From positions 1 through 64,000 of the IMG/VR virus record IMGVR_UViG_3300042884_001293: 64,000 bases of DNA. One strand, given 5' to 3'. The notes beneath the pieces are model-generated. The model saw only the letters and a program-made list of their open reading frames with translations, searched no databases and was not told the DNA's origin. Origin of the DNA: a virus. The translations under genes were made by a program, and so were the position numbers. How positions within the stretch are numbered: the stretch's first letter is position 1; every line of letters begins with the position of its first letter. Positions 7,782-63,210 of this stretch are shown in pieces.

Positions 7782-7816
7782 ACAGTTAATTACTCCTGTA
7801 TGAATAATAACTTAAA

Positions 7817-8518: not shown

Positions 8519-9075
8519 AGCAACTTAATAAAATCATGTCCACACTGAGGGCATTTGCAATCAATCTCTTTAGGCTGTATCTGGTCTAGCTTGCCCTGTT
8601 CATCCATTCCTACAGGTTCAAAGTCTGGTGTTTCTTCTTCCTGATCCCTCGCAACCAACGCCGCTAACTCGTCTTCATAATACAAATCGTCAAGCTGAAT
8701 AATCTCATCGTTGATCTCAATTAATAGCTCAATATCAGGATCGTAGTTAAGCTCAGATATCCGATTATCAGCTACTCCCAACTTAACCGCTTTCGGGTCG
8801 CTAGCTGTGGGGATATCATCACGAATTACGATGACGGGGCGATCGCCAGTCGTATGCACTGTAATAGGCTCTATCTCTTGACCAAAGCGATCGTATGAGA
8901 CTTCTAAACGCGCCGATCCTGCGAACGTTTCGCCATTTGCAGCCGTGGTAATTGCACCGATCCATCCTGAATTTTCGATGGTATCGCTCAAGGCTTTCAT
9001 ACCACGATTTTTATGGCGGTTGACGTTTTTGGATTGGACTGTAAAATCCGATAACTTAGCTTTACTTTTCGCCAT
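8515..9075 (-). CDS. ParB N-terminal-like domain protein with C-terminal zinc ribbon (paralog 2)
   Basis: N-terminus is near-colinear with 7134-7781 (KAKLSDF..Q..N.N.H..RGM...ITTAANGETFAGSARLEV). C-terminal 'CKCPQCGHDF'. Confidence 0.5.
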   Translation of the reverse strand: MAKSKAKLSDFTVQSKNVNRHKNRGMKALSDTIENSGWIGAITTAANGETFAGSARLEVSYDRFGQEIEPITVHTTGDRPVIVIRDDIPTASDPKAVKLGVADNRISELNYDPDIELLIEINDEIIQLDDLYYEDELAALVARDQEEETPDFEPVGMDEQGKLDQIQPKEIDCKCPQCGHDFIKLL

Positions 9076-10732: not shown

Positions 10733-11191
10733 CTAGTCATAAGTTGGCAGAAAAAAAGCTTTTGTAGTGCAATCGGATGTCATTTTACGAACTTGTGAGA
10801 TCGCCTCGTTTAAAGTTTTCCCGTAGCCATTAAAACAGCCTTCCTGAATCTTCCACATCCCATACCGCGACAACCCTTCTTCACAAGTAAATTTTATGGA
10901 GCGATGATATTCTTTGCCATTCTGTAGGTCTAACGCAATAAAATCTTGTGTGCTTCCATAAAAATCGGTTTTCACAGAAAAAATATTCCCAAAAGCTTGA
11001 TTAACCTCTTGGCTGAATTGATTAATGTTCATCTCAATGTCCATCTCCTTAATTACCTTCTTAGATACAAAACGAGCGCCCTTACCTTGAACTACAACAA
11101 AAAGCACATTCTTCCATTCTTCAGCTCTCTTGATTTGGTTGGGAGAGACGTTTAAAGCGGTTGCGATTTGTGCGATTTGGTTGGCGTTCAT
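10733..11191 (-). CDS. hypothetical protein
   Basis: First gene behind promoter family B copy a; no motif. Confidence 0.55.
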   Translation of the reverse strand: MNANQIAQIATALNVSPNQIKRAEEWKNVLFVVVQGKGARFVSKKVIKEMDIEMNINQFSQEVNQAFGNIFSVKTDFYGSTQDFIALDLQNGKEYHRSIKFTCEEGLSRYGMWKIQEGCFNGYGKTLNEAISQVRKMTSDCTTKAFFLPTYD

Positions 11192-14495: not shown

Positions 14496-14496
14496 A

Positions 14497-14568
14497 TCGG
14501 AATGGTTGGAATCGAACCAACTACTTTCGGTTCCCAAAACCGACCGTCTACCAATGGCTTACAATCCG
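14497..14568 (-). tRNA. tRNA-Pro (anticodon UGG), slightly degenerate
   Basis: The minus strand reads CGGATTG-TA-AGCC-ATTGGTA-GACG-G-TCGGT-TTTGGGA-ACCGA-AAGTA-GTTGG-TTCGATT-CCAAC-CATTCCG-A. The anticodon and T arms are perfect. There is one mismatch in the acceptor stem and a weak D stem. No encoded CCA. Confidence 0.6.
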
Positions 14569-14678
14569 AGGTGCGATCGCTTTATCCGCTGCCATCAACA
14601 ATCTACACGGTGCGTAAATCTCAGGCTTAGGAGCGATCGCGTTTACAATATTAGCATTAAGCTTTATCGGTTGCCATC

Positions 14679-15191: not shown

Positions 15192-15205
15192 CGGAATATT
15201 ACGAT

Positions 15206-15295
15206 CTAAAAAATAGTTTGCTTACCCTATTGACACCTTTTACTTAGTGGTGATACTATTTTATTCATACAGACAAAACAAAAACAATAACACAG
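15206..15295 (+). promoter_or_regulatory. promoter family A, copy 1
   Basis: TTGACA (15230-15235), 18 nt, TACTAT (15254-15259). Conserved block CTAAAAAATAGTTTGCTTACCCTATTGACACC...GATACTATTTTATTCATACAGACAAAACAA. Confidence 0.65.
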
Positions 15296-15797: not shown

Positions 15798-15841
15798 TAT
15801 TACACATCAGGGGCTTAACCGCCCCTCATTCAACTAACATT

Positions 15842-15931
15842 CTAAAAAATAATTTGCTTACCCTATTGACACCTTCCATCTAGTACTGATACTATTTTAT
15901 TCATACAGACAAAACAAAGGAGTAAACGACC
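15842..15931 (+). promoter_or_regulatory. promoter family A, copy 2
   Basis: TTGACA (15866-15871), 18 nt, TACTAT (15890-15895), then the conserved leader TTTTATTCATACAGACAAAACAAAGGAGTAAACGACCATG. Confidence 0.7.
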
Positions 15932-16773: not shown

Positions 16774-16789
16774 CTAATTGTAAACAAAT

Positions 16790-16867
16790 ATTACAAATAT
16801 CTTGACACCTTTCGCCTAGTACTGATACTATTTTATTCATACAGACAAAACAAGGGAGTAAACGACA
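16790..16867 (+). promoter_or_regulatory. promoter family A, copy 3
   Basis: TTGACA (16802-16807), 18 nt, TACTAT (16826-16831), same leader ending GGGAGTAAACGACAATG. Confidence 0.7.
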
Positions 16868-20529: not shown

Positions 20530-21981
20530 TTACTCACCAACGAGACGAGCGATGATTTTTTTAGCTTGATCCAGCTCCTCTTTAAGCTCAATCACCTCAG
20601 TAGTAATATCCATTGGCTTGCAGTTTTCTGGGAGCTTAAGGTATTTGGAAATCACTTCTAACTGAAAGTAGCCTTTGTAATATTTCTTTTTTTCTTGCTT
20701 TAACTCCATGATCGCAAAACAAATGTCAGGTTGCTTGGCATCGCTAGGCAAGTCCAAGAATGAGGCAATACTAGATAGACAGCGATTTAGTCTCTCAATT
20801 TCGCGATCCTTGTCTCCTGTAAGTTGTTCAATCTTGGCGATCGCCTCTTCATTGCTAATATCTTTACCAACTGAATCAATTAAAAGCTGTTTAACCTCAA
20901 GCGCAAATTGAGTAAACTCATGATCGCGTTCCCAGTGTTTGTGACGATCTATTAAATGCTCTACAAAGCTGATAGCGTCATCGTCAGGGAACTCATCAAT
21001 AGACGGATATTTGTCTTTCCTGACCCCTTCATATAGCGCTTGTTTGATCTGACTGCGAAACTTGATTTCTTCCTGATCATAGGCTTGCTTTTGGGCTTGT
21101 AAATCTACTGAGTTTAGCAAATCATTAATAATGCGACTGCCATAAATCTCGTACTCACTACGCTTTCCGAAAAGAGCTAAGTGAATATCGCATAATCGGC
21201 GGAATCCAGTAACAACGATCTTTTCTTCTTGCTTGAATCTGCGATGGTCAAGACATTCTGCATTAGCCTTATTTAAAATGTCGGTAATCTCACCTAGTAG
21301 CTGTGATTGCTCTGATGATTCTTTGATTTTAGCGATCGCTTCATCATCAGATAGCTTGCCCTGATTTAACACTTCTTTGATTGCCATAACAAATCTATTG
21401 GATTGATTTTGATCCCATCTCCTAGCTTTGATTGCCATAACAAATCTATTGGATTGATTTTGATCCCATCTCCTAGCTTTGATTGCTGCAATAGTTTCGT
21501 CATCACTCAAACCTTCGCCAAATAAAAACTTGACCTGATCGCGAAACTCATTAGCAGCCGTGAGATCGTTATACATCTTTTCAATCCTAGCCAACATTTG
21601 ATCATCGCCTAAGACGGTCAGAATCTCATCAGGATTATCATCCAATAATACGTTTACTCGACGACTGAAACTGCAAGGGCGGCGGTTATCAATGGCAAGA
21701 TTTTCTGGTTCTGATGTTTTCACAATGCGAACATCTTTTAACCTTTCAAACCCATTCGCCCATAGTTGCAAGCGATCGCAAAGATGATCGAGGATGCCTC
21801 GATAATAGGAGCGCTCTGTTTTTAGATTGTGGATTTCTGCAATAGTTGCGTCATCGGATTGGATGCCTAATGCTAAAGCTTTCTTTACTTGATCGCGAAA
21901 TGACATAGCTTGTATTGCGTTCTCATGTATTTGATGATTTTCTGGAATAAGAAACCCATACTCATCATTATTCTTAACCAT
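20530..21981 (-). CDS. repeat-containing protein (periodic 'F-R-x-Q-[VI]-K ... SDDE-[AT]-IA-x-I' modules)
   Basis: 483 aa. At least five copies of the module (SDDATIAEI, SDDETIAAI, SDDEAIAKI, DDDAISFV, SNEEAIAKI) plus an exact 17-aa tandem duplication. Confidence 0.6.
   Translation of the reverse strand: MVKNNDEYGFLIPENHQIHENAIQAMSFRDQVKKALALGIQSDDATIAEIHNLKTERSYYRGILDHLCDRLQLWANGFERLKDVRIVKTSEPENLAIDNRRPCSFSRRVNVLLDDNPDEILTVLGDDQMLARIEKMYNDLTAANEFRDQVKFLFGEGLSDDETIAAIKARRWDQNQSNRFVMAIKARRWDQNQSNRFVMAIKEVLNQGKLSDDEAIAKIKESSEQSQLLGEITDILNKANAECLDHRRFKQEEKIVVTGFRRLCDIHLALFGKRSEYEIYGSRIINDLLNSVDLQAQKQAYDQEEIKFRSQIKQALYEGVRKDKYPSIDEFPDDDAISFVEHLIDRHKHWERDHEFTQFALEVKQLLIDSVGKDISNEEAIAKIEQLTGDKDREIERLNRCLSSIASFLDLPSDAKQPDICFAIMELKQEKKKYYKGYFQLEVISKYLKLPENCKPMDITTEVIELKEELDQAKKIIARLVGE
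21379..21480. repeat. perfect 51-bp tandem duplication (2 copies)
   Basis: GATTGCCATAACAAATCTATTGGATTGATTTTGATCCCATCTCCTAGCTTT occurs twice back to back. In frame it gives AIKARRWDQNQSNRFVM x2. Confidence 0.95.
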
Positions 21982-23803: not shown

Positions 23804-24544
23804 ATGAAAAACATCCATGCAGTCTTATCGCATCATATTGCTGATGAATTTATCGACATTTTTGGGCTCGATAATCCATTAACAATTAGTTGTTTTTGGA
23901 GTATTGAAAAAAATATTGGTAATAGTGATTTAACGATCGCGCCAATTACTAAACAATACGATGAACCATTGAGTGACTCTACTAACTATTTAATAATTGC
24001 AGCCCCGTCTCGTTTTTTGATTGATACTAATCGGAATACTTTTTTAGATCAAAATCAAGGATTAAGCGTTGATTTGCAAATTGTAGAAATTTTAATAGAG
24101 TCAACTTTAAAAGATGTTGGTTTTACACCTGAAATAGTAAAACTAAGGCGTAAATCTTTAGAGTATAAAGGCGAATCAGTCCATGTTATCCCTATTGATG
24201 ACTTGAGAGAACACGATGAAAATAATGACGGCTCTTGCTGGTGTAATCCACGCATAGAACAAGAAGAGAACGGACGAGTAATTATTCATAACCCTCTTGA
24301 TGGAAGGGAGATTTTAGAAAGCCTTGATCTAAAGCGCAAAGACATCCCCAATCACCTTGCCTTAGTTGCTAAGCACTGGCTACCCTCCAGCGATACAGAC
24401 GATCTAAATGTAGCGATCGCTTTGAGATGGTTGCAAAAAAGGCATAAGTATTTGACCCCAACTCTAGGGGCAGAAGAAGCTTTAACCGTTTCTTTGGTTA
24501 ATTATTTCGACACTTTTTTAAGAAGTTTGATTGAGGGTGATTGA
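23804..24544 (+). CDS. hypothetical protein
   Basis: 246 aa between the chaperone and the tape measure. Contains 'CWCNPRIEQEENGRVIIHNPLDGRE', a short motif I recognise from many phage hypotheticals. Confidence 0.5.
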   Translation: MKNIHAVLSHHIADEFIDIFGLDNPLTISCFWSIEKNIGNSDLTIAPITKQYDEPLSDSTNYLIIAAPSRFLIDTNRNTFLDQNQGLSVDLQIVEILIESTLKDVGFTPEIVKLRRKSLEYKGESVHVIPIDDLREHDENNDGSCWCNPRIEQEENGRVIIHNPLDGREILESLDLKRKDIPNHLALVAKHWLPSSDTDDLNVAIALRWLQKRHKYLTPTLGAEEALTVSLVNYFDTFLRSLIEGD

Positions 24545-24545
24545 T

Positions 24546-27500
24546 ATGGCTGATGAAAATTATGCAATTAGAGTAAGTTTTGATGGCATCGACAAGGCGA
24601 TCAGTGACATCAAAACTTTGCAATCTGCGATCGGTAATATCAAAGCACCCGTCTTAAATTTGGGCGGCGCGGATGCTTCTAACATAGCTGTCGCTGCACT
24701 AAAAAAACTACAGCTAGAAATAGACGCTTTAGAGAAGAAAAAGTCACAAAGCGGCGCAAATGACGCAACTAGATCGGCTGCTTTTATTTCGCAACTAGAG
24801 AGGCAAAAAGCAGCTAGCGCTGTACGGGTATCAGATGGCGCTGACAAAGAGGCGGCGCGAGTTGCACAAGAATTACTACGTTATAAACAGCAATTAGCAG
24901 CTATAGATGCAAAGCTGATTAATCCTGCTGATATTGCTAACGCTAAAGCTCTAGCGAGTGAGATCAATAAACTTAATCTAGAAAAAATCAAGAAAGGATT
25001 TGACGATGCTAGCCCTGTAACTTTTAATCAGTTCATTGGCGCTACTACCGAGAAAGCGCGAGATTTAGCTGAGCAACTACAAAATACATCGCAGACATTA
25101 GAACGGATTGGTACTACTTTCAATCAAGTTTCTAGTGCTGCTAATCAAGCTTTTTTGGCTTTTGATACTGCCAAAACTAAAGTAGCGACATTATCTACTC
25201 AATCTAACGCTTTTGCTAATACAGCTATCAAGCTATCAAAGGATTTAAACAATCAAGTAACCAGCACCGAAATATTAACAGCACAATACGAAATTCTATC
25301 TAGTGGATTTATTAATGCTGCTGATGCTTCAGAGATTGCCAGAGTATCGGTATTAGGTGCTAAGGCTGGTTTTACTGACACAGCTACGGTAGCTGATGCA
25401 ACTACCTCAATTTTGAATGCCTATGGTTTAGCTGCTAGCGATGCTGCTAAGGTAGTAGACCAATTAGCAGTAGTCCAAGATAAAGGTAAAACTACAATCG
25501 GATTATTTGCTGGTCAGCTTGGTAAAGTTGCGCCAATTGCTGCAAGTGCGGGCGTAACACTAAACGAGTTAAACGCTGCCATAGCAAGCGTTACGATTAA
25601 AGGCGTTAAAACCGAGACTGCGGTTAGTGGTATTAGACAGGCGATTGTCAACTTGGTCAAGCCCACGCAATCCGCACAAAAAGCATTGGAGGCTATTGGG
25701 ATCACTAACGCTGCTACAACGCTTAAAACTGAAGGATTAACAGGTGTACTCAATCGATTAAAAGCGGCTGGCTTAACCACCAGTAGTCAGCTATCTAAAA
25801 TCTTTACAGATATTGATGGTTTAACTGCTGTTGTCCCTTTACTTAACGACGACCTTAAGAACTTTAATGAGAATCTAGTAGCTGTTGGCAATGCTTCGGG
25901 CAAAGCGCAAACTGGTTTTGATGTTGTTGCTAAATCTGCTGAAGGAAAAATAACAACAGCAATCAACAAAATCAATGAAGCTTTAGTAAATTTAGGACGT
26001 GGTACACAAACAGCATTTGCGCCATTAATAGCGGTTGTAGGCGCGGCTGTTGATGTATTCAACCAATTACCCGCACCAATTCAAGTAGGTTTAGGCGCGA
26101 TTATTGGACTAGCTGGCGGTATTGTTACATTAGGTGCGGCTCTTACAGCGATCGGCGCGGCGGCTCCAGCTTTTGTTGGGGGGTTAAAGTTATTTGGTGG
26201 GGCGGCTGGTATTGCAGCTTTTGGTGCTAATGCCCTCACCTTTGCGACTACCCTAGCTAGTAATGCCTTTACACTGCTAACCACTAAAGCGGGATTAGCG
26301 GCGATCGCTCAAGGGGCACTTGCTGTAGGTACGGGAGTGCTAACAGGTGCGCTCACGGCTGCTAGTGTAGCGGCGTATGCACTGACAACGCCATTGGGGT
26401 TAATTGTTATTGCTGCGATTCCACTAATTGCAGTAGGTAAGCAATTATCAGCAGCTTTTAATGTTTCGGAATCGACAAAAAGCTTGCAGGATTACAAGCA
26501 AAAATTAGCAGAATTACAAGCGCTACGCGGTAAGCTAGCGTCACCTGAGCAAGCTACTGACGACGGATTAGGAAGACAAGGCGCAACATTTGATGTTTTT
26601 GGGGCGCAAAGGGGGCGACAAAAAGAAGTAATTGCTTTTGCTGAAAATCAAAAGGAATATACCAAAGCCCTCGACGAATCACTCAACGTATTGAACAAAT
26701 ACGGTGTAGCCATTGACGCTACAGGGGCTAAAAATAGATTAGGTGCCGAAGGAGTAGCGAAATTTAATAAAGAAACCAAGGAGCAGGTTGAAAATATTGA
26801 TTTAGCTATTAATTCCTTGAAAGCGCAAGCTCAAGGCGCTTCTGATAACCCTGCTTTACAAAAACTTCTAAACAATGAGATTGCAATATTCTCCAAACGC
26901 AAAAAACTTTTAGAAGATCGAATTGCTGCGGTAAATAGTACAGCAGCAAAGGAAGCATCAGCGATCGCTGAAGTAACCGATGAACAACGCAAGCAAGCTG
27001 AAAGAATCAGGGAAGCCCAAAACCAAGACGCTGAAAAAAATATCAAGCGATCCTTTGAAGACACCAAAGCCAAGCGCGATCGCGAGAATGCCAATGCAAT
27101 CAAAGCAATTGAAGAAAAAAATGCACTCGCAAAAGGTGAGCTAGATCGCAAGCAAGCGCTAGAAACAGAGGCACTAAAGGAAAAGCAAGCCCTAGCTTTA
27201 CAAGATAAGCAACGCGCATTTGACGACACTCAGAATGCCAAAAAACTACAACTTGAGGATGCTCTTGATGCCAAGAAACGTGCAAACGAGGAGAAACTAA
27301 ACAAACTCAAGCAGGATTTTGATGACAAGCAAAATGCGCTTAAGGAACAGAGAGCAGAAAAGCAACGTAAGGATGACGAGTTGTTTGCAGCGCAACGCGC
27401 TCAACGTGACAAACAAGCGTCTGAGGCTTTGTCAAAAGCTAAGCAATTAATCAGTAATGAAGGCGCGATCGCTACTGCTAGCCCAGAAGATCGGGCTAGG

Positions 27501-28499
27501 ATTGCAGCGCAAATCGAAGAAGAGAATCGCATTAGAGCACAAGCAGCTACCCAAGGTCAGGGCGGGGTACAAAGTCAAGAACAGTTAGTTGCTCAAGCCA
27601 AGCAAATAGCTCAAGTATCCGCGATCGCTACGGGTGAAGAGCAGAAAAAAGTACAACTTGCATTGGACGAACTTGAGAAAGCCAACAAAGCCAAACAAGC
27701 AGAGATTGATAAAGCTGAAGATGCAAAACGCACTGAAGCTAAGAGGGTTAGTGACAAGGCTTTTGAAGCTGAATTAAACGCTGCTAAGTTGGCTTTTGAA
27801 GCTGAGCAAAACACGGCTAAATTGAATTTTGAGAACACTGTACTCAGAACCGAAAAGCAGAAGATCGAAGCCGAATTGCAAGCTAGCAAATTAGCTTTCG
27901 AGAGAGGTGAACTTGCAGCAATTAAAAAGCAGCAAGCCGATGAAGAACGTGCTTTAAAACTACAGCAAACCAACGAGGACTTAGCACTCAGGAAAGCTGC
28001 TGATGCTGAGCTAGAGACGATTAAGTTAGCTCAAAAAGAGAAAGAGCTAGCGCTTGATCGGGCGTTTGAGGATCAGAAAATCGAACGCGAGAGAGTATTT
28101 AAAGAGCAACAAAGGGCGCTAGATAAAGCCAGTGCAATTGAGATACAACAAATCCTTGGTAAGTCTGCACAGCAAATTATTGATGCGATCGCTATCACTA
28201 AAGGCGGTACATCACTTAGCGCCGCTACTGGTGTTGGCGCTCCTAAAGTCCCAGCTTTTGCGAGTGGTGTTACAAACTTCCGCGGCGGTATGGCATTGGT
28301 AGGAGAACGAGGTGCTGAGCTTGTGACATTGCCTAGAGGCTCTAATGTCCTACCTGCAAATCAAACCAAGAACGTATTGAACAATTCAGGTGGCAACAAA
28401 ACCTATAACGTAAACGTGACGACTGGCAGTGGCAATGCTACAGAGATCGCTTTGCAAATTCAGAGGGAGATGGCACGATCGGCGGCGTTGAGTATGTAG
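24546..28499 (+). CDS. tape measure protein
   Basis: About 1317 aa from the ATG at 24546. Long A/K/E/Q coiled coils, a central glycine/alanine-rich hydrophobic segment (GLGAIIGLAGGIVTLGAALTAIGAAAPAFVGG...), and a position after the chaperones. Confidence 0.9.
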   Translation: MADENYAIRVSFDGIDKAISDIKTLQSAIGNIKAPVLNLGGADASNIAVAALKKLQLEIDALEKKKSQSGANDATRSAAFISQLERQKAASAVRVSDGADKEAARVAQELLRYKQQLAAIDAKLINPADIANAKALASEINKLNLEKIKKGFDDASPVTFNQFIGATTEKARDLAEQLQNTSQTLERIGTTFNQVSSAANQAFLAFDTAKTKVATLSTQSNAFANTAIKLSKDLNNQVTSTEILTAQYEILSSGFINAADASEIARVSVLGAKAGFTDTATVADATTSILNAYGLAASDAAKVVDQLAVVQDKGKTTIGLFAGQLGKVAPIAASAGVTLNELNAAIASVTIKGVKTETAVSGIRQAIVNLVKPTQSAQKALEAIGITNAATTLKTEGLTGVLNRLKAAGLTTSSQLSKIFTDIDGLTAVVPLLNDDLKNFNENLVAVGNASGKAQTGFDVVAKSAEGKITTAINKINEALVNLGRGTQTAFAPLIAVVGAAVDVFNQLPAPIQVGLGAIIGLAGGIVTLGAALTAIGAAAPAFVGGLKLFGGAAGIAAFGANALTFATTLASNAFTLLTTKAGLAAIAQGALAVGTGVLTGALTAASVAAYALTTPLGLIVIAAIPLIAVGKQLSAAFNVSESTKSLQDYKQKLAELQALRGKLASPEQATDDGLGRQGATFDVFGAQRGRQKEVIAFAENQKEYTKALDESLNVLNKYGVAIDATGAKNRLGAEGVAKFNKETKEQVENIDLAINSLKAQAQGASDNPALQKLLNNEIAIFSKRKKLLEDRIAAVNSTAAKEASAIAEVTDEQRKQAERIREAQNQDAEKNIKRSFEDTKAKRDRENANAIKAIEEKNALAKGELDRKQALETEALKEKQALALQDKQRAFDDTQNAKKLQLEDALDAKKRANEEKLNKLKQDFDDKQNALKEQRAEKQRKDDELFAAQRAQRDKQASEALSKAKQLISNEGAIATASPEDRARIAAQIEEENRIRAQAATQGQGGVQSQEQLVAQAKQIAQVSAIATGEEQKKVQLALDELEKANKAKQAEIDKAEDAKRTEAKRVSDKAFEAELNAAKLAFEAEQNTAKLNFENTVLRTEKQKIEAELQASKLAFERGELAAIKKQQADEERALKLQQTNEDLALRKAADAELETIKLAQKEKELALDRAFEDQKIERERVFKEQQRALDKASAIEIQQILGKSAQQIIDAIAITKGGTSLSAATGVGAPKVPAFASGVTNFRGGMALVGERGAELVTLPRGSNVLPANQTKNVLNNSGGNKTYNVNVTTGSGNATEIALQIQREMARSAALSM

Positions 28500-50228: not shown

Positions 50229-50503
50229 GTACAATCAAAGTATCTGTAACCGCCGCACACATCGCCGCCGCAAAGTATCCTAGTAAGTCACCATTAGCTC
50301 TTGCCCTGCGAGAGATGGGGTATACAGATACCCACGTCAATCAACATTTTGCATATATCGGCAACAAAGTTTATGCATTGCCAGAATCAGCAATTGCATC
50401 AGAGCGTTGTTTTGATTTCCTTACTAAAGGCGGATCATCGCAGGGTGAGATTGCTGAGAATATTTTTGCTTACGAGTGCGAGTTAGTGGAGCTAGTGCAG
50501 TGA
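50222..50503 (+). CDS. hypothetical protein
   Basis: ORF track; overlapping. Confidence 0.5.
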   Translation: MLSTIKVSVTAAHIAAAKYPSKSPLALALREMGYTDTHVNQHFAYIGNKVYALPESAIASERCFDFLTKGGSSQGEIAENIFAYECELVELVQ

Positions 50504-51519
50504 GTAAAAAAACATTTACAGCATTATTTGCTGGTGGCGGTGGTGCAGATTTAGGAGCGATCGCCGCAGGACTAGAACCATGTGAATCAGTGGAATACGA
50601 TCCTGCGATCGCTGAAGTTCACAAGGCAAATATAAACGGCAAAATGCATGTTGCCAATATCCTTGATTGCGATCCTTATCGCTTTGAAAAGCCTGATATC
50701 CTTCACGCTAGCCCAGTCTGTAAGCAATTTAGCATAGCTAATGCTAACAAAGGCGAAGCACAACTTGATATCGACTGCGCCCGAAAGGTAGCAGAATTTA
50801 TCCAAGTGCTACAGCCTAAGCATTTTACTCTTGAGAATGTGGAAGCTTACCGCAAATCCAAATCGTTCCATTTAATTGTTGAGATGCTTCATAAGCTTGG
50901 ATATTTCTGTAATTGGCAAGTATTAAATGCTGCTGATTTTGGAGTGCCACAGTCGCGCCGACGATTAATCTTAATCGCTGTCAAAGATGGCTTTATCCCA
51001 TCGTTGCCACTGCCTGAAAAGCATATTGGATGGTATGAAGCGATTAAGGATAAGGTGCATGATTTACCTAATAGTCAGTTGGCAGATTGGCAGCTTAGAG
51101 CGTTGCCCAGTGAGATTAAAGAAGTATGTGATCATACTTTACTTCTTAGAGATACTAAATTTACTCATTCGCAAAGACAAGAACCAAGCCCGACCTTAAC
51201 TGTTGATGCTTGTCAACAAGATTACAAAGCCATCCTAGTCGAAAACACAGGAGCGAGAAGCGATCGCGAATTACAAACGCGAGAAGCAACAGAGCCATGT
51301 TGGACACTAAGAGCAATGGGGCAGGACGGGCATTATCACAGGGCTAATGCCATATTAAACACTCGTATCGTAGCTCTAGACATTGCTTGCTTAGCTCGTT
51401 TACAGTCGTTTCCTGATAACTATCAGTGGAGAGGCAAAAAGTCGCTAGACGGCAAAATTATTGGTAATTCAGTACCACCCCTGATGTATCAAAAGATTTT
51501 GCAATCGATCATCCAATAA
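50476..51519 (+). CDS. DNA (cytosine-5)-methyltransferase
   Basis: Motif I 'FAGGGGADLG', motif IV 'ASPVCKQFS', motif VI 'TLENVEAY', motif VIII 'QSRRRLILIA', motif X 'GNSVPPLM'. The true start may be the GTG near 50500. Confidence 0.85.
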   Translation: MRVSGASAVSKKTFTALFAGGGGADLGAIAAGLEPCESVEYDPAIAEVHKANINGKMHVANILDCDPYRFEKPDILHASPVCKQFSIANANKGEAQLDIDCARKVAEFIQVLQPKHFTLENVEAYRKSKSFHLIVEMLHKLGYFCNWQVLNAADFGVPQSRRRLILIAVKDGFIPSLPLPEKHIGWYEAIKDKVHDLPNSQLADWQLRALPSEIKEVCDHTLLLRDTKFTHSQRQEPSPTLTVDACQQDYKAILVENTGARSDRELQTREATEPCWTLRAMGQDGHYHRANAILNTRIVALDIACLARLQSFPDNYQWRGKKSLDGKIIGNSVPPLMYQKILQSIIQ

Positions 51520-55453: not shown

Positions 55454-55607
55454 CACAGAAAAACAGCCAGAAAAACAGCGTATCCTGATCGCCATTTCAT
55501 CACAGCAGATGGAAGATCGGTATAGGGTAGAAGCTTCTCGCGCAAAAGCTCAGAAGATGGGTGCTAGTTCTAGGATTTTGAGGTTATTTGAAAATGACGC
55601 TAGTTGA
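55446..55607 (+). CDS. hypothetical small protein
   Basis: 53-aa ORF below the cutoff (MSDTEKQPEKQRILIAISSQQ...), overlapping both neighbours. Confidence 0.35.
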   Translation: MSDTEKQPEKQRILIAISSQQMEDRYRVEASRAKAQKMGASSRILRLFENDAS

Positions 55608-56136
55608 CCACGAAATCGAAAAGCTTTGCGAAGAAAAGGGTGTTATCGTGCCATTTGACAAAGCAATGCTTAACCCACAATCACTTGATGTGCGGATAGG
55701 CTACACGCTGAAAACTGAGAACAACTGGCTTAAACGATGTCTAACAGGTCAAGAGTTTACTACTCACGACTTAACCAATTACTCAGAATCAAACCCGTTT
55801 TGGGTATCGCCACTAAGTTTTATTCTGACTTGTACCTACGAGACTTTCAATATGCCGAGTAATTACTCAGCAGAGTTTAGACTTAAGTCAAGTAGAGGGC
55901 GATCAGGATGGGGTCACGTTTTGGCAGTATGGATTGATGGTGGTTTTAATAATTCAAAGCTGACCTTAGAGTTATTAAACCATCGTATTTGGGCTTGGCA
56001 ACCTATTTATCCCATGATGCGAATCGGACAAATCGTATTTGCTGAGACGGCTTACCCAAGGCATGATTACTCAGAAACAGGACGGTATAACAACGATTTG
56101 GATACGCAACCAGCAAAACCAGAGAAGAGAATATAA
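55594..56136 (+). CDS. dcd: dCTP deaminase / dUTPase-superfamily protein
   Basis: 'LVDHEIEKLCEEKGVIVPFDKAMLNPQSLDVRIG', 'RLKSSRGRSGW' and 'MRIGQIVF...TGRYNND' are colinear with the Dcd blocks. Confidence 0.75.
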   Translation: MTLVDHEIEKLCEEKGVIVPFDKAMLNPQSLDVRIGYTLKTENNWLKRCLTGQEFTTHDLTNYSESNPFWVSPLSFILTCTYETFNMPSNYSAEFRLKSSRGRSGWGHVLAVWIDGGFNNSKLTLELLNHRIWAWQPIYPMMRIGQIVFAETAYPRHDYSETGRYNNDLDTQPAKPEKRI

Positions 56137-56140
56137 AAAG

Positions 56141-56374
56141 ATGATCGTCAAAATTGAAGACATCCAAGCATGGCTAGCTCAAAAAGCTCTTTGGGATAGC
56201 CAAAATATAGAAGATGTTGAGTTCACGCTAAACGGCGAACCATATAAACCGCAAATGTTTTGGACTGATGCTGATGACGGTAATCCAACTAACCCGATCG
56301 CCGCAGATAATTTTAAATTTATGGGCTGTTGCACCCATAGCATTTTTGAGATGATTGTTGGGGATTTGAAATAA
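56141..56374 (+). CDS. hypothetical protein
   Basis: ATG at 56141. Confidence 0.45.
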   Translation: MIVKIEDIQAWLAQKALWDSQNIEDVEFTLNGEPYKPQMFWTDADDGNPTNPIAADNFKFMGCCTHSIFEMIVGDLK

Positions 56375-56616
56375 TGAGTTGGACATATCGAATCTCAAAG
56401 CAAACTCTCGCAAACGGTGATGATGTATTTGCTATTCGTGAATTTTATCCCAATAGCAAGGGAGAACTAACAAGCTGGAGTGCTAACGAGATTACACCTG
56501 TTGGCACAACACTGGAAGATCTAAAAGGCGAGTTAGCACTAATAATGCAGTGCTTGGACAAGGAAGTAATTGATATTGGAGGTGAAGACAATGAAAAAAT
56601 GGTACGCGATGTTTGA
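56374..56616 (+). CDS. hypothetical protein
   Basis: Overlaps the upstream stop. Confidence 0.45.
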   Translation: MSWTYRISKQTLANGDDVFAIREFYPNSKGELTSWSANEITPVGTTLEDLKGELALIMQCLDKEVIDIGGEDNEKMVRDV

Positions 56617-57334
56617 GGACCGAGGCTTAAACTGCATTGCTTATGGCGGATTTGACACTGAAGACGAAGCGAAAGCTATGTTTGGTGGAAGGGTTAGCTA
56701 TGCAATGCTTATCCCAGACGATAAATTGGTTGTTTATCCAGATTATCGCACCGCAAAGTCCTGTATAGGAATAGGACTTTGCGGTGCACATGGCACGGGC
56801 AAAACCACACTGGCAAACGCCTTATCGCAAAAGCTAGGGATTCCATATATCCCTATTGATGCGAGTAGTGTGTTTTTGGAGCATGGTTTCCACCCGTCCG
56901 ACAAATTGGATATCCGCACTAGGTTGTTTTTGCAACAAAAGATTTTGGCTAAAGCTGTAGATATTTGGTTTGACGTTGACGAGCCTAGCTTTATATGCGA
57001 TCGCACACCGTTGGACATGGCTGCTTATTTGCTTGCTGATGTTGGCAATGGTGAGTTAGATAAGCATACACAGTCTGAGGTTATGGACTATTTGCAAGAT
57101 TGCTTTAATGTCACGATTCGATATTTTGACAAAATTGTACTAATTCCTCCTGCAATCCCTTTTGTCGAGCGTGAGTACAAAGCGGCGATTAATCAACCGT
57201 TAATATTCAAGTTGCATACTCAGCTTTTAGGGATACTCAATTATCTAGATTTACCTTACAAGGAGTTGCCAAAAGACTGCATAAAGTTGGGTGATCGGGT
57301 GAAATTTGTTGAAGATTATTTAGAGGAACCATAA
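56591..57334 (+). CDS. P-loop NTPase / nucleotide-kinase-like protein
   Basis: Walker A 'GLCGAHGTGKTTLANAL'; 'FICDRTPLDMAAY' is a kinase-like lid. AAA_28/NadR-like arrangement. Confidence 0.5.
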   Translation: MKKWYAMFEDRGLNCIAYGGFDTEDEAKAMFGGRVSYAMLIPDDKLVVYPDYRTAKSCIGIGLCGAHGTGKTTLANALSQKLGIPYIPIDASSVFLEHGFHPSDKLDIRTRLFLQQKILAKAVDIWFDVDEPSFICDRTPLDMAAYLLADVGNGELDKHTQSEVMDYLQDCFNVTIRYFDKIVLIPPAIPFVEREYKAAINQPLIFKLHTQLLGILNYLDLPYKELPKDCIKLGDRVKFVEDYLEEP

Positions 57335-57706: not shown

Positions 57707-58237
57707 ATGTATGGAATAGAAACGGAAGACAGGGTTACAGCTTTAGCCAGTGCGCTTAGTTATTGGGTTTTTCGCTGTAGAGACAAGGGCAAAAGCCCTG
57801 CCATGGGCTTAAGAACATGGGAATATTTTCAAAGCAGTATCCAAAATGCTGCTATTCCCTCTCGCAATATCGACGACTACATTGAGAATTTAGCCAAGAA
57901 GCTTATTGTTGCACACCTCAACCCAAAAGAATGGACTCGCATAATCGCGCCAAAACAAGTGGTTTTACGGGCTACTGTGAATGATGATGGCAGTATGGGA
58001 GACATTCAGCAAATTGATAGCGATCAAAATATTGATCTTTGGTGGTTGGGATGGAACGACATTTTAGCCAAATTGAAACATACGCACGGGATAAGCGATC
58101 GCCATATCCTCAGTTTGTGTAAATCAAAACCGCACATTATTACTACTTTCTGTCGTGTTCGCTTTGAAAGCGATCGCGCTTTGAATATTCCAGAAGAAAC
58201 AGAAAACACTCTAGATGTAGAGGCTAACAATGCTTAA
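57707..58237 (+). CDS. small helical protein in the cas11 position (tentative small subunit)
   Basis: 176 aa; overlaps the Cas7-like gene by 8 nt. Called by position only. Confidence 0.2.
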   Translation: MYGIETEDRVTALASALSYWVFRCRDKGKSPAMGLRTWEYFQSSIQNAAIPSRNIDDYIENLAKKLIVAHLNPKEWTRIIAPKQVVLRATVNDDGSMGDIQQIDSDQNIDLWWLGWNDILAKLKHTHGISDRHILSLCKSKPHIITTFCRVRFESDRALNIPEETENTLDVEANNA

Positions 58238-59435
58238 TTACAATCCCCACGATCGCCACAATATCAAGCTTCACTTACAGATTACACTGCTACAGCCTTT
58301 GTCCCATATCAGTGAGTCTGTAGGCAATCAAACCAATTTACGAACGATGAAAGTGACAGATTTAGAGGGAAATCCCTCTGAGGTGTTTTGTCTTTCTGGT
58401 AACTCGCTACGCAATCGTATTTTGAGACGCTGTGGTATTGATTCTTTCCTCTCTCAGATTGGTGTGCAAGTATCGCCAACGATGCATCACGCTCTATTTT
58501 GCGGCGGCGCGATTGATGGTGGCACGGGTAATGATTTGGATTTGGACAGAAAGATTAGACAGCTTTTGCCATGCCTCTCAGTGCTAGGAACTGCCAAACC
58601 TAAAGGATTGTTTGGTGTATCCGATGCTCAAATGGTGCACGGTCGGATCGCTGTTGGTGATGCGTATTTGGCTTGTGTAGAGAGCGCTAAGTATCTTTAT
58701 CAGATGTTCCCCCCTGCGTTGCCAATCGAAGTCATACCAGCACTAGAGCAGATTATAGATGGCAAAGACTTACAGCATAGTCAACGAGTGAATCAATGGC
58801 TAGGAATTGATACCAATGTTTCTCAATACGATCTAAAGGCATTGCTTGATGAGTGGCTACCGTTCTTAGGAGAGAAGCTTCGATATTATTCCGATTGGCT
58901 TACCTATAGCCAAAAAACAAGGCGCGATTCACTTCACGATCCTAACTTTGCAAAACATTTGATCGGCGCTACTCCAGAACCTCAAAAGATGATTTCTCAA
59001 TGCGATCTATTTGGTATAGTTTCGGAGCCTGAAACCAAGAAAGGTAAAAGCGACAAAGCCAAGCCCGAAAAAGAGAAAAGCCAACAGATGATTATGGGTA
59101 ATTGGCTACTCCAAACAGGTGCTACTTTGTACTCTTATTGGAGCGCAAACGTCACCAGAATCGAAGAAGGATTTATTGCAGATGCTTTACTCAAGTTTGC
59201 AGAATCGCCATACTTGGGCGGTCAATCAGGAACGGGTTGCGGACTATGCTCTATGCAGTTTTGGTTTGAGACTGCGGAGGGCGATCGCGGTGAGTTTATG
59301 ACGATTACACCTCATGCTCAGAAATTAAGCGATCGCGCCTCTGAATCTCATGCAAGGTATAAAGAATACCTCGAAGATTACAAAGGCTTTCTCGCGGATT
59401 CTAAGAGCGATATTAGGAGTTTATTGAATGGGTAA
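58230..59435 (+). CDS. cas7: Cas7-like RAMP protein (Csf2-like)
   Basis: 'PSEVFCLSGNSLRNRILRRCG', 'HHALFCGGAIDGG', and a C-terminal glycine-rich loop 'YLGGQSGTGCGLC'. Confidence 0.55.
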   Translation: MLNYNPHDRHNIKLHLQITLLQPLSHISESVGNQTNLRTMKVTDLEGNPSEVFCLSGNSLRNRILRRCGIDSFLSQIGVQVSPTMHHALFCGGAIDGGTGNDLDLDRKIRQLLPCLSVLGTAKPKGLFGVSDAQMVHGRIAVGDAYLACVESAKYLYQMFPPALPIEVIPALEQIIDGKDLQHSQRVNQWLGIDTNVSQYDLKALLDEWLPFLGEKLRYYSDWLTYSQKTRRDSLHDPNFAKHLIGATPEPQKMISQCDLFGIVSEPETKKGKSDKAKPEKEKSQQMIMGNWLLQTGATLYSYWSANVTRIEEGFIADALLKFAESPYLGGQSGTGCGLCSMQFWFETAEGDRGEFMTITPHAQKLSDRASESHARYKEYLEDYKGFLADSKSDIRSLLNG

Positions 59436-59805
59436 TTTTTCTTTCTCTATTTCAGTAAAACCAAAGCCCATCCCTTTTGATTTTGGTGATTTAACTCAGT
59501 TCAAAAAATATGAAAGTTATTCTGATTTACCGTGTGTTGAAGGCGTGTATCTTGTGTTTACTCAAGATATGAAATGCGTGTATGTTGGACAATCTGTAAA
59601 CATACAAAAGCGCTTTAAAGCTGGGCATTTACATTGCGGGAAGCTCCGTGCCATGTACGATTTAGGCGCAAAATTTTTCTATGTAATCCCTTGCGGTTAC
59701 TCCATGAAAAGCCATATAGAAGCATCTGCTATGCACGTTTTTAAGCCAATGTTAAATATAGTTCCAGTGTGTGGTTATGGAGTGAAACATGGAAACCCGT
59801 TTTAA
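59428..59805 (+). CDS. stand-alone GIY-YIG nuclease
   Basis: 'EGVYLVF...CVYVGQSVNIQKRFKAGH...HIEASAMH...LNI' gives the GIY, YIG, R, E and N catalytic positions. Overlaps both flanking genes. Confidence 0.6.
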   Translation: MGNFSFSISVKPKPIPFDFGDLTQFKKYESYSDLPCVEGVYLVFTQDMKCVYVGQSVNIQKRFKAGHLHCGKLRAMYDLGAKFFYVIPCGYSMKSHIEASAMHVFKPMLNIVPVCGYGVKHGNPF

Positions 59806-60487
59806 TAACCTCCAAATAATTGCACACATGGCAACCCCGCTAGTTGCCTATGATGACTGGTCCCCTAGCTTTGACGCTCTGATTGAGTATCAATTGTTAG
59901 ACCAATTAGGGTTAATCACGCCTAATCCAACGGCTGCGGATGCCGAAAAGAATCTGCCCTTGATTTTTGATAAAATGCCGATCGCTCGGAAGACGCTCAA
60001 AGGCGAGTGGTATTGGGCTGTGAGTTCACCACACTACATCGAAAATCATCAACAAACTCAGCGTTACCGTAAGCGATGGGACAAGCAAGAACTACACCTT
60101 GATTGGGGTAAAAAGAAAGCTAAGGTTGATGGTTCGCAAGGGCATTTTAAAGCCTATGATTTGCCACGATACGATCGCGAAATGCAGACTATACACTGGT
60201 TTGCGATTGGCAATGCTGACAAGATTAGCGAACTAATCCTAAATGTTACGCATCTTGGTAAGAAGCGATCGCAAGGTTGCGGACAGGTACACAAATGGGA
60301 AGTACTTCCTTTTGAACATGATTGGCATTTGTGGAGAGGTGAAAGCTTAGCCCGACCAATGCCAATTAATATGATTCCACAGCCTCAATCTATCAATATG
60401 ATGAACTGGGGGTGGCGAACACCGTATTTTGTGCAATCCAATAGAACTATGTGCTATATGCCAACGGATAATGTATGGAGAGAATAG
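59789..60487 (+). CDS. cas5: Cas5-like RAMP protein (Csf3-like)
   Basis: N-terminal 'LQIIAHMATPLVAYDDWSPSFDALIEY' and glycine-rich loop 'HLGKKRSQGCGQV'. Placed directly after the Cas7-like gene. Confidence 0.45.
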   Translation: METRFNNLQIIAHMATPLVAYDDWSPSFDALIEYQLLDQLGLITPNPTAADAEKNLPLIFDKMPIARKTLKGEWYWAVSSPHYIENHQQTQRYRKRWDKQELHLDWGKKKAKVDGSQGHFKAYDLPRYDREMQTIHWFAIGNADKISELILNVTHLGKKRSQGCGQVHKWEVLPFEHDWHLWRGESLARPMPINMIPQPQSINMMNWGWRTPYFVQSNRTMCYMPTDNVWRE

Positions 60488-61170
60488 AACGCGATGCATT
60501 CTTGGCTCATGCGACACTGCCAACATTTAAGCGCAAAGTTGAGAAAGCTAAAGAGATTATTCGAGAGGCTTTAGCGATCGCCCCTGCTTATGTTGCGGTG
60601 TCATGGGGTAAAGATTCAGTCGTAATGCTTCATTTAGTGCAGTCTATTTGTCCTGATATTTTGGCTGTGTTTTTAGGGCATTCTGAGCAGGATTTAATCA
60701 CCAATTTTAGTGGAGTGCAAAACTCTTATTTAACTAAATTTGCAAGTAATTACAAAGCTATTTTTTTAGATAGAAATCAAGAACTTGAGTATTCCCCAAC
60801 TAAGATAAAAGACGCTTTAGACCGTTTGCAAATACCACTAGCTTTTGTTGGTGTACGCTCAGAAGAAAGCAAGGTTAGACGATTTTCTGTTAAGAAATAT
60901 GGCTATATTTATCAGTATAAAGCTGGTAATTTTAGATGCTATCCTATTGCTAATTTTTCATGGATAGATATATGGGCTTACACCTGCTTAAATGAATTGC
61001 CTTATTTAGAAGCCTATGATAAAATTGATTTTAGTAGTCCTGAATCGCGCACGTCTCTACACTTTGGTAGAAGCAAAAAATCTGCTTTAGGTGTTCAAAG
61101 ATTTGAGCAATTTAAACGTATTTGTCCACAATTTTTTGAGTATGTGAAAGAGAATTATGAAGGATTTTAA
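60475..61170 (+). CDS. PAPS reductase / CysH-like PP-loop protein
   Basis: PP-loop 'AVSWGKDSVVMLHL', 'FVGVRSEESKVRR' and 'YPIANFSWIDIWAYTCLNELPY'. Confidence 0.75.
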   Translation: MERIERDAFLAHATLPTFKRKVEKAKEIIREALAIAPAYVAVSWGKDSVVMLHLVQSICPDILAVFLGHSEQDLITNFSGVQNSYLTKFASNYKAIFLDRNQELEYSPTKIKDALDRLQIPLAFVGVRSEESKVRRFSVKKYGYIYQYKAGNFRCYPIANFSWIDIWAYTCLNELPYLEAYDKIDFSSPESRTSLHFGRSKKSALGVQRFEQFKRICPQFFEYVKENYEGF

Positions 61171-61747
61171 TTGGGCTGACTATTCCTTAGCTAGGATCAA
61201 TTTAGTCGCATCAGGACGTGGGAATTGTGGAGAAATTCTGCCTAAAGCTACCGATGAAACTATTATCAAATTTCGAGAATCTCTAGCAGGTCGTTTGGAT
61301 GAAGACGATCGTCAAATGCTAGGAATTTATGACAAATTGGTAGATTGCCCTGTTAATACTTTAGGCTTTGAGATGCGTAATTATTACAAAAATAACGGGC
61401 ATTCTCCCATTGAGCCTACAGGTACTTTTCCCGTGCGCTACATCATGATTCACGATGCTCATCACGTTTTAATTAACGCTTCTACCTCTGAGCAAGGCGA
61501 ACTTAATGTGCTTGCGTTTGAGTGTGGAATGATTAAGCACGGCAGCTCGTCAGAATCAATTATTCCCTTACTAGCACAGGCTAAAGCTTTCCCAGATTGC
61601 GATATTGTTGAGATTGCAAAATATTGGGAAATGGGCTGTAATGCTAAGTTTGGGCTTTTGGAACAATGGGATTTGGCTCAATGGATTGACAAACCAGTAC
61701 AAGAAATCAAACAAACTTATGCAGTCAAACAACCCTTACAAAAATAA
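61157..61747 (+). CDS. Coq4-family-like metal-binding protein
   Basis: 'HDAHHVLINASTSEQGE' fits the Coq4 HDxxH-x11-E zinc-ligand motif exactly. Confidence 0.35.
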   Translation: MKDFNWADYSLARINLVASGRGNCGEILPKATDETIIKFRESLAGRLDEDDRQMLGIYDKLVDCPVNTLGFEMRNYYKNNGHSPIEPTGTFPVRYIMIHDAHHVLINASTSEQGELNVLAFECGMIKHGSSSESIIPLLAQAKAFPDCDIVEIAKYWEMGCNAKFGLLEQWDLAQWIDKPVQEIKQTYAVKQPLQK

Positions 61748-61777
61748 AGGATTGTCAAATGTTAGGGGCTTTTAAAA

Positions 61778-62359
61778 ATGAGTAACTTTATTGAATTTCT
61801 TTTCAGTATTGAAGGCTCTTTAATCCCTAGAAACTACCATTATTGTCTCTATTCCGCTTTGACGGGATTAGCTCCTAAGTTCAAAGATAACCCTGAGTGG
61901 GCGATCGGTAGAATCAGTAACACAAATATTTTTGACGATCGCACATTACGTTTAACTCAAAGCACTATAAAACTACGTTGCTCCAAAGATTTAATTACAG
62001 AGCTAACGATGCTTTTTGATTGTCAAATCCATTTAGGCAAAGAGTTGATTAAACTCAAGCTGGTTAATGGCACAGAGCTAAAATCTCAAGAGAATCTAGC
62101 GGCTTGGGTATCAATTAAAACCGACAACAATCGTGAACCCGATCTTACTAGGTTTGCGGTGTCGCTAGGTAAGCAACTAGCAAAGTTTGATATTAATACA
62201 CTGCCAATAATAGGGCGCAAAGAGCAGCTAATTATTAAAAAACAGCCGTGTGCTGTATACCCTGTAATGTTTTCAGATTTGCATCCTAACGAGTCTTTGA
62301 CATTACAAGAGAAAGGGTTGGGAGGTCGCAAACATCTAGGATGCGGGTTTTTTGAATAA
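61778..62359 (+). CDS. cas6: Cas6 (Cmx6-type) endoribonuclease-like protein
   Basis: The length (193 aa), the N-terminal 'IEFLFSIEGSLIPRNYHYCLYSAL' and the terminal 'ESLTLQEKGLGGRKHLGCGFFE' follow the Cas6/Cmx6 family pattern. Confidence 0.6.
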   Translation: MSNFIEFLFSIEGSLIPRNYHYCLYSALTGLAPKFKDNPEWAIGRISNTNIFDDRTLRLTQSTIKLRCSKDLITELTMLFDCQIHLGKELIKLKLVNGTELKSQENLAAWVSIKTDNNREPDLTRFAVSLGKQLAKFDINTLPIIGRKEQLIIKKQPCAVYPVMFSDLHPNESLTLQEKGLGGRKHLGCGFFE

Positions 62360-62418
62360 ATAACAAAATCACTCGGCGGAGCGATCGCTTAAAATAGAGT
62401 GACTACTTCGCATTCCCC

Positions 62419-62446
62419 AGCCGTTGCACTCGCGACGGCTTTTTTT
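62419..62446 (+). terminator. rho-independent terminator of the cas-like operon
   Basis: AGCCGT-TGCACTCGCG-ACGGCT followed by TTTTTT. Confidence 0.65.
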
Positions 62447-62460
62447 GTGTCTATAAAAAT

Positions 62461-62535
62461 AGTTTGGTTTTGCTATTGACAAAACCTATAGGTCGATCAA
62501 TAATAGGTTATTGAGTTAAACAAAGGAACAAAGCA
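62461..62535 (+). promoter_or_regulatory. promoter family B, copy c
   Basis: TTGACA (62476-62481), 17 nt, AATAAT (62499-62504). The palindrome ACCTATAGGT lies in the spacer. Leader is GAGTTAAACAAAGG. Confidence 0.6.
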
Positions 62536-63210
62536 ATGCTACTAGGTAATCTTGATCTTGAATGCGGCGAAGACCCTTCGTGGTCTGTGTCAACAGATAT
62601 TTTTGTTGACGAGGATAGTCTGAAGATCTCCAATATTCCATATACCATCAACGAAGAGGGGGTATATCAACTCCTTGCTTTGTTAGAGGATCACGGGATT
62701 GAGCCCGTCGAAGCGTTTGAAGATTGGCAAGAAGGCTGCATGGAATTGTCCTTTCATGTAGCTCCAATTCTTTCGGGAGTTGACGCTACACAGGGTCAAC
62801 TCTTGGAAAAAGCAATCTCCACAACTGTTAAATGCTGGGAAGACGAGTTCGGAAACGACAAGCTAGATCCCGCCTCGTCTGACTGGGTTGACGAGACATA
62901 CATTGAGGGGATAGAGGAAACCCCTCTGATCAGGGAGCGCTTTAATATTGAAGTGCTTCTAAAAATAGGCACAGATGATGCCTTGTCAGCTTATTATTGG
63001 GAGTTTTTAAAGGAAAGGGTTACTATCCAAGAAGTGTGGATCGCCGATCACTATCCATCGGATGGCAATATCCCATTGACAGTTCATTTTATGTCTGATG
63101 GATCTGCTATCGTTTTGAATCCTCTAACAGGGGATGAATTTTATCCAACTGTTAGAGGATTTAATGAAGCTTACGCTGAATTTGATTACGATTGGAAAGT
63201 AGATGCCTAG
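62536..63210 (+). CDS. hypothetical acidic protein
   Basis: ORF track; behind promoter B copy c. Confidence 0.55.
   Translation: MLLGNLDLECGEDPSWSVSTDIFVDEDSLKISNIPYTINEEGVYQLLALLEDHGIEPVEAFEDWQEGCMELSFHVAPILSGVDATQGQLLEKAISTTVKCWEDEFGNDKLDPASSDWVDETYIEGIEETPLIRERFNIEVLLKIGTDDALSAYYWEFLKERVTIQEVWIADHYPSDGNIPLTVHFMSDGSAIVLNPLTGDEFYPTVRGFNEAYAEFDYDWKVDA

Follow-up and report, generated by a model that had tools for sequence, protein, structure and literature searches.

What does a phage gain from the effector genes of a CRISPR-Cas system when no CRISPR array accompanies them? This question is raised by an operon of seven genes in a 64,000-nucleotide stretch of viral DNA (positions 1 to 64,000 of IMG/VR record IMGVR_UViG_3300042884_001293; hereafter, the window) that belongs to a siphovirus-like cyanophage with a genome of roughly 75 kb. 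An initial annotation, made from the sequence without database searches, described the operon as a phage-borne, array-less, type IV-B-like effector locus that departs from the known systems by including Cas6, a Coq4-like protein and a GIY-YIG nuclease and by lacking a large subunit. Type IV-B is the one widespread CRISPR-Cas subtype the function of which is still unknown. The evidence presented here leaves little doubt that the module is a genuine but divergent type IV-B (Csf) effector set, and the locus represents an unusual form of an already known system, the function of which is unsolved, and not a system of a new kind. As for its role, by analogy with the characterized type IV-B complex, we favor with moderate confidence an RNA-scaffolded complex that would act in phage-host or inter-element conflict.

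The type IV-B gene set

Seven translationally coupled open reading frames (ORFs) occupy positions 57707-62359 of the plus strand, with successive junctions formed by overlaps of 8, 8, 17, 13 and 14 nt and one 30-nt gap, and are closed by a hairpin terminator (Table 1). This layout agrees in all coordinates and lengths with the initial annotation, and every one of the peptide motifs quoted there is present at the expected place. The Cas7, Cas5, Cas6, CysH-like, Coq4-like and GIY-YIG identities proposed from the translations are likewise borne out by PADLOC, Pfam and NCBIfam profiles and, for the Coq4-like protein, by an AlphaFold2 (AF2) model compared with Foldseek.

Table 1. Coordinates of the type IV-B module and associated features in the window
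Feature	Position	Strand	Size	Basis and remarks
cas11 (type IV small subunit)	57707-58237	+	176 aa	PADLOC typeIV_Cas11 and gene position
csf2 (type IV Cas7)	58230-59435	+	401 aa	PADLOC Csf2_0_IV
Mobile insertion with GIY-YIG endonuclease gene	59432-59804 (ORF 59428-59805)	+	373 nt (ORF 125 aa)	Pfam and DNA alignment
csf3 (type IV Cas5)	59789-60487	+	232 aa	PADLOC Csf3_0_IV
cysH-like, PP-loop (PAPS-reductase family)	60475-61170	+	231 aa	Pfam PAPS_reduct
Coq4-fold metal-site protein	61157-61747	+	196 aa	AF2 model and Foldseek
cas6 (Cmx6 / I-MYXAN family), last operon gene	61778-62359	+	193 aa	Pfam Cas6, TIGR02807
Intrinsic terminator closing the operon	62419-62450	+		9-bp stem with 6 GC pairs, then T-run TTTTTTTGTGT
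csf1 (type IV large subunit)	9995-10672	-	~225 aa	tblastn, TIGR03114, PADLOC; ~47 kb from the operon

Type IV-specific profiles, together with PDB profile matches, recognize all five signature proteins of type IV-B. Csf2 matches the PADLOC profile Csf2_0_IV over residues 11-390 (E=4.1e-44), and a profile of its family matches PDB chains of Cas7c (11fs, 1e-8), of type IV-B Csf2 (7jhy, 4e-6) and of type IV-A Csf2 (8rc2, 4e-6). Csf3 matches Csf3_0_IV over its full length (E=6.5e-47), and a protein identical to it carries a precomputed match to PF27782 (Csf3). Thus, with a comparable PADLOC match for Cas6 (E=6e-36), the similarity of the 401-, 232- and 193-aa proteins to Cas7, Cas5 and Cas6, on which the initial annotation had staked its claim, is found and is significant.

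The product of the first gene, which had been placed in the cas11 slot, is recognized by the PADLOC typeIV_Cas11 profile (Cas11_2_IV, E=9.7e-13) and by the profile labeled 'putative small subunit of type IV' (E=4.9e-11). Moreover, across the 80 related viral loci, a hidden Markov model (HMM) of this Cas11 family recovers an ORF directly 5' of cas7 in essentially every case, and the slot upstream of cas7 is also kept in relatives with the canonical csf1-cas11-cas7 order. The AF2 model of Cas11 is helical and confident (pLDDT 82).

The large subunit, which had been thought to be missing, is encoded in the window on the opposite strand, far from the operon. It was found by tblastn with Csf1 sequences of related phage loci (49-52% identity, E 1e-64 to 1e-70), and its assignment is supported by the PADLOC profile Csf1_0_IV (E=1.2e-26), by TIGR03114 (E=7.4e-11, below the equivalog cutoff) and by a precomputed PF27781 match on an identical gene in another contig (L091 in our set of related loci). 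The 224-aa ORF that follows cas6 (62536-63210) was considered as a candidate for Csf1 and rejected, having no similarity to the Csf1 proteins of relatives.

A split ancestral operon

In related phage contigs, csf1 is placed after cysH. Specifically, in the sister phage L019 (92% Cas7 identity) the gene order is cas11-cas7-insert-cas5-cysH-csf1, with csf1 adjoining cysH and followed on its 3' side by genes for a 251-aa protein, a ParB-like protein and a radical-SAM protein; the same genes flank csf1 in the window. These shared neighbors indicate that the distant csf1 belongs to the system and, together with the gene order in L019, that the lineage of the window split an ancestral contiguous operon by genome rearrangement. 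All members of the Cas6-bearing clade to which the window belongs lack a csf1 within 10 kb, whereas in the Cas6-less clade (~90% identity) it is adjacent.

Next to csf1 in the window lies an ORF for a 152-aa protein (10733-11191, minus strand), the first 63 residues of which match the N-terminus of a 181-aa ORF that is inserted between cas7 and cas5 in L019, L021 and L025; this match may have been left behind by the recombination through which the operon was split. Between cas6 and csf1 in contig L002 (15008-15460) lie a C-terminal fragment of IS605/TnpB-like type and a second copy of the csf1 5' end; the csf1 boundary appears to be a rearrangement hot spot. Directly after csf1 in L006 (13429-14238), and also in L007 and L053, there is a gene with a precomputed AcrVA2-like Pfam match. 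Beside csf1 in the window, a DNA-modification-like block extends over 5902-9075 (minus strand) and includes a radical-SAM gene (5902-7146), a Mom-family gene (7874-8518; PF25680, 9e-47) and genes for two paralogous ParB-like N-domain proteins (7134-7781 and 8515-9075); a Mom-like gene likewise lies 3' of csf1 in the relative L041.

The third gene of the operon, which had been counted among its components, is a 373-nt presence/absence insertion that the window shares with the identical contig L001 alone and that is absent from all other relatives at ~96% Cas7 identity. Its product matches Pfam GIY-YIG (24.7 bits vs a cutoff of 22.6), and DNA alignment reveals a clean insertion at the cas7/cas5 junction, flanked by TTGAATGG and ATAACCTCC, through which the cas7 stop is restored and cas5 obtains a new start. 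To judge from its sequence and distribution, the GIY-YIG gene is a selfish homing-endonuclease passenger and not a component of the system. In other relatives, this junction is occupied by different insertions, among which the 187-aa, 181-aa and other ORFs yield no Pfam match.

A split csf1 and an operon invaded by a homing endonuclease could be taken as symptoms of decay, as could the truncation or loss of the Coq4-like gene in relatives and the decayed cas6 fragments in L027 and L060, so that the locus would be a non-functional remnant of a captured CRISPR-Cas system. We consider this highly improbable given that the core ORFs are all intact with coupled starts, that in over 80 loci the core proteins are conserved, in preserved order, at identities ranging from 25% to 96%, that the GIY-YIG insertion so precisely restores the adjoining stop and start, and that the displaced csf1 is intact and 87% identical to its homolog in L019.

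Relationship to known type IV systems

The gene set agrees with the published definition of type IV-B (PMC7038947; PMC8175902) except that Cas6 is present and csf1 is unlinked. The initial annotation overstated the distance from known systems: 12 type IV-B loci with Cas6, as well as type IV-B on prophages, have been described (Pinilla-Redondo et al., 2020; PMC7038947), and virus-borne type IV-B is known from archaeal viruses, in a study that also cites lytic phages carrying type IV systems (PMC10541130). We found no paper on type IV-B in cyanophages.

Like the type IV-B system on a plasmid of Mycobacterium sp. JS623 (7JHY; PMC7937560; PMC8175902), the cyanophage system encodes Csf1, Cas11, Csf2 and Csf3 along with an adjacent cysH-like gene, resides on a mobile element, and has no array and, among the ORFs searched, no adaptation module, helicase or nuclease. 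Unlike the mycobacterial system, it is cyanophage-borne, has csf1 ~47 kb off on the other strand, includes in addition a Cas6 of the Cmx6 type and a protein with the Coq4 fold, and consists of sequences that score under the NCBIfam equivalog cutoffs. The 12 Cas6-carrying loci (PMC7038947), compared by their description only, share with it the combination of a type IV-B set and Cas6 without an array. The 'Fuxiviridae' viruses of Bathyarchaeia (PMC10541130) also encode Csf1, Csf2, Csf3, Cas11 and a CysH-like protein, in an atypical type IV-B locus for which a counter-defense role has been proposed; they differ in that they infect archaea, have a mini-array of two repeats and are without Cas6, whereas here Cas6 but no repeat is found in a cyanobacterial virus. 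Types IV-A and IV-C resemble the cyanophage system in combining Csf2 and Csf3 with an RNase of the Cas6 family that is of type I origin; however, type IV-A has DinG and an array and is without Cas11, type IV-C has a Cas10-like large subunit, and neither has CysH. Finally, the phage decoy Cas9/tracrRNA 'biomimicry' anti-CRISPR (PMC10910872) is similar in that a virus employs CRISPR effector parts without immunity of its own, with capture of host CRISPR RNA (crRNA) being proposed, but it is a class 2, single-protein device with an anti-repeat that matches the host, and no such host link was found here.

With respect to components of other CRISPR-Cas types, no DinG/RecD helicase, Cas10-like or adaptation gene was detected in the operon or among the 10 largest unannotated ORFs, the latter giving no PADLOC match to Cas1, Cas3, Cas10 or DinG, in a search that did not extend to small ORFs (e.g., Cas2) or to the ~12 kb outside the window. 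CRISPR arrays are absent from the 64-kb window according to four independent scans, including TRF, a repeat search and a k-mer scan, complemented by Rfam. The initial annotation had noted that an array just outside the window would make this an ordinary system; none is present in contigs of 93-97% identity that cover ~12 kb beyond it.

The family to which the operon belongs is represented in at least 80 viral loci in IMG/VR and in further metagenome contigs, with the gene set conserved at 25% to 96% identity. Searches of 50,697 GenBank phage records with the operon gave no match by nucleotide or protein comparison. These phages offer natural comparisons among close genomes that have or lack Cas6, have or lack the Coq4-like partner, keep csf1 linked or unlinked and, in a few cases, carry arrays beside the operon.

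The CysH-like and Coq4-like proteins

The gene for the CysH-like protein (Pfam PAPS_reduct, E=2e-13; phrog_2302, E=7.9e-19) is located directly 3' of csf3 and is present in nearly all related loci. As read from its sequence, the protein contains a variant P-loop, SWGKDS, and is without the C-terminal ECGLH-type cysteine motif. In every locus where it is found, the Coq4-like gene lies directly 3' of cysH. The Pfam Coq4 profile matches the product below its cutoff (E=6e-4, 19.5 vs 22.9), with some members of the family scoring above, whereas the AF2 model (pLDDT 75) matches Nostoc Alr8543 (6e12; E=9.4e-6, prob 1.00, TM 0.56) and 3msq in Foldseek; the motif H99-D100-x-x-H103-x11-E115 is invariant. 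This is a tiny family: a search of 1.84 billion proteins yields just 16 representative clusters at E<=1e-10. We found no paper linking a Coq4-like protein to CRISPR-Cas. The dedicated Coq4-like partner of CysH is a new lead. The relatives in which the Coq4-like gene is truncated or missing have a cysH allele that is just 51-55% identical, and this concurrence of a divergent cysH with an altered Coq4-like gene indicates exchange of a cassette.

One alternative is a nucleic-acid modification device, in which a ribonucleoprotein would position the CysH-like and Coq4-like proteins for adenylation or some other modification of DNA or RNA, be it that of the phage or of the host, in an anti-restriction role. 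CysH is strictly retained in the loci, the Coq4-like partner co-occurs with one class of CysH, the ancestral operon runs into ParB-like, Mom-like and radical-SAM genes, and it has been argued that CasCysH, being without the catalytic cysteine, may AMPylate substrates (PMC8175902). Nevertheless, no CasCysH has demonstrated modification chemistry, the neighborhood association is seen in just a few lineages, the Coq4-like gene is dispensable in close relatives, and the presence of Cas6 is left unexplained, so that we regard this explanation as distinctly unlikely. Under the conflict role that we favor for the Csf module, the CysH-like and Coq4-like pair would instead be an enzymatic accessory acting on nucleic acid bound by the complex.

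Cas6 and the search for its RNA

Cas6 is recognized at the family level (Pfam PF09559, E=7e-34; TIGR02807, 107.6 bits vs a cutoff of 98.85), with 25-33% identity to cellular homologs retrieved in a scan of a genome collection with a four-sequence Cas6 alignment. The histidine of the LPADHGY motif, which is invariant in 16 cellular homologs and kept in most phage homologs, is replaced by tyrosine in the window and its clade (IPRNYHY). By analogy with other Cas6 families, this histidine is presumably catalytic, and the Cas6 of the window may bind RNA without cutting it. The cas6 gene recurs in at least five sublineages at differing positions in the operon; given this recurrence and the constant location of the Coq4-like gene after cysH, the presence of these two genes is recurrent and not accidental.

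If Cas6 does process RNA, the system could provide crRNA-guided interference or silencing: Cas6 would mature crRNAs from arrays of the host or of co-resident elements, and the Csf complex, acting in the manner of type IV-A and with no nuclease, would bind complementary targets on competing phages or plasmids or on the host. Some of the evidence fits such a guide role. The operon does carry a Cas6 that is bona fide at the family level; a virus-borne type IV-B with a mini-array has been reported (PMC10541130); and five more distant relatives (L043 and L049-L052) have CRISPR arrays 1-6 kb downstream of csf1. The arrays in L052 (14179-19070), L043 (17713-21059), L050 and L051 comprise up to 28 repeats, with two repeat types in one locus. 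A 7-repeat array (GTTTCCTCCCACCCCAACTCTTTCGCCCCTTAGCAAG) lies ~870 nt after csf1 in L049 (16600-17090), a locus with no Cas12-like gene, and two copies of a 37-nt repeat spaced by 51 nt immediately follow csf1 in L056 (13301-13388). Hence, some members of the phage type IV-B family are not array-less.

Against the guide role, neither an array nor a solitary repeat is present in the window or in the near-identical contigs covering the rest of the genome, and none of the Cas6-bearing related loci has an array within 10 kb. The arrays of L052 and L043 adjoin a protein of 622-627 aa that has a Cas12f1-like TNB domain. They may be part of one phage-borne type V-like system with this protein, or else may be shared with type IV-B. 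Furthermore, the Cas6 of the window is without the family-invariant histidine. The arrays beside cellular Cmx6 homologs have in common a strikingly conserved repeat ending TGATGCCGTAAGGCGTTGAGCAC, and none of the 785 spacers from these arrays matches these phages over its full length, hence providing no link to a host. On balance, guided interference appears unlikely for the window.

Two repeats were considered as Cas6 substrates and rejected. At 15205, 15841 and 16777, a repeat of 78 nt turned out to be a promoter with a common leader before small ORFs, and a 71-nt-spaced repeat in L002 is the duplicated 5' end of csf1 beside the IS605-like fragment.

Possible function of the phage complex

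By analogy with the mycobacterial complex (7JHY; PMC7937560), Csf2 would polymerize on RNA together with a minor filament of Cas11, and Csf3 and Csf1 would cap the complex. Cas6 would bind a hairpin RNA and thereby select or cap it, its cutting activity having perhaps been lost. Because the phage encodes no array, the bound RNA would be supplied in trans, most likely from the host or from another element. The phage would gain an advantage in conflict with host defense or with rival mobile elements, rather than adaptive immunity of its own; such a role is suggested by the AcrVA2-like gene after csf1 in L006 and by the Mom-like, ParB-like and radical-SAM genes beside csf1.

Several observations weigh against this interpretation, beginning with the identity of the components. 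Csf1, Csf2 and Csf3 all fall below the NCBIfam equivalog cutoffs and so constitute a distant branch: TIGR03115 matches Csf2 with E=6.7e-6 and a score of 25.6, far under the cutoff of 130, and TIGR03116 matches Csf3 over its full length with E=2.4e-17 and 63 bits vs a cutoff of 140. Comparison of predicted structures, which succeeded for the Coq4-like protein, yielded no significant PDB match for the Cas11 model in Foldseek; there is no PDB profile match for Cas11 either, and its assignment accordingly rests on the PADLOC HMMs and gene position. In the window, csf1 is transcribed apart from the operon, so that its participation in stoichiometric amounts is an assumption. Some 96%-identical relatives (L009, L012 and L015) have a truncated Coq4-like gene or none at all, which indicates that this gene is dispensable, and the histidine-to-tyrosine change renders the activity of Cas6 uncertain. 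As to the RNA, the Cmx6 repeat ending TGATGCCGTAAGGCGTTGAGCAC does not occur in the window even when 3-4 mismatches are allowed, none of the repeats of related phages occurs there, and an Rfam scan of the window gives no CRISPR-DR match, just a tRNA-Pro and terminator-like noise.

A more specific proposal is that Cas6 without the conserved histidine grips the repeat hairpins of the host, the Csf2/Cas11 filament sequesters host pre-crRNA or crRNA, and the captured RNA receives a chemical mark or is inactivated by the CysH-like and Coq4-like proteins, the whole being a multi-subunit anti-CRISPR decoy. We put this forward as a long shot; if true, it would mean that type IV-B, long without a known function, captures and modifies RNA in counter-defense. 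Because phages of this host group are isolable, both the RNA bound by the Csf complex and the role of CysH are experimentally approachable.

Genome context and other features of the window

The window shows the hallmarks of a tailed phage, with genes for a portal protein (21-1613), a large terminase (3554-5008, minus strand) and a tape measure protein (24531-28499). The HIP1 octamer GCGATCGC is present in 85 copies vs 0.42 expected from base composition, and close homologs were found in contigs binned to Pseudanabaena and other cyanobacteria. The initial description of an array-less, HIP1-rich, siphovirus-like cyanophage is thus upheld by the octamer count, the phage genes and the array scans, and the host is probably Pseudanabaena.

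Upstream of the operon (55588-57334 and 50476-51519, both on the plus strand), genes for a dCTP deaminase (phrog_1663, 5e-40), an AAA_28/nucleotide-kinase-like ATPase and a DNA methyltransferase place it within a region of nucleotide metabolism and DNA modification. Downstream of the operon terminator, the best sigma-70-like promoter of the region (11/12) is found at 62476-62504. This promoter region (62455-62504) is similar to that of the 78-nt unit that occurs three times in the window (15205-15282, 15841-15918 and 16777-16854) and consists of a TTGACA/TACTAT promoter, a shared leader and a Shine-Dalgarno sequence 5' of small ORFs; it restarts transcription right after the cas6 terminator. 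The window further contains a single tRNA gene, tRNA-Pro (TGG; 14496-14569, minus strand), and a 51-nt perfect tandem duplication (21375-21476) inside the ORF of a 483-aa protein (20530-21981, minus strand).

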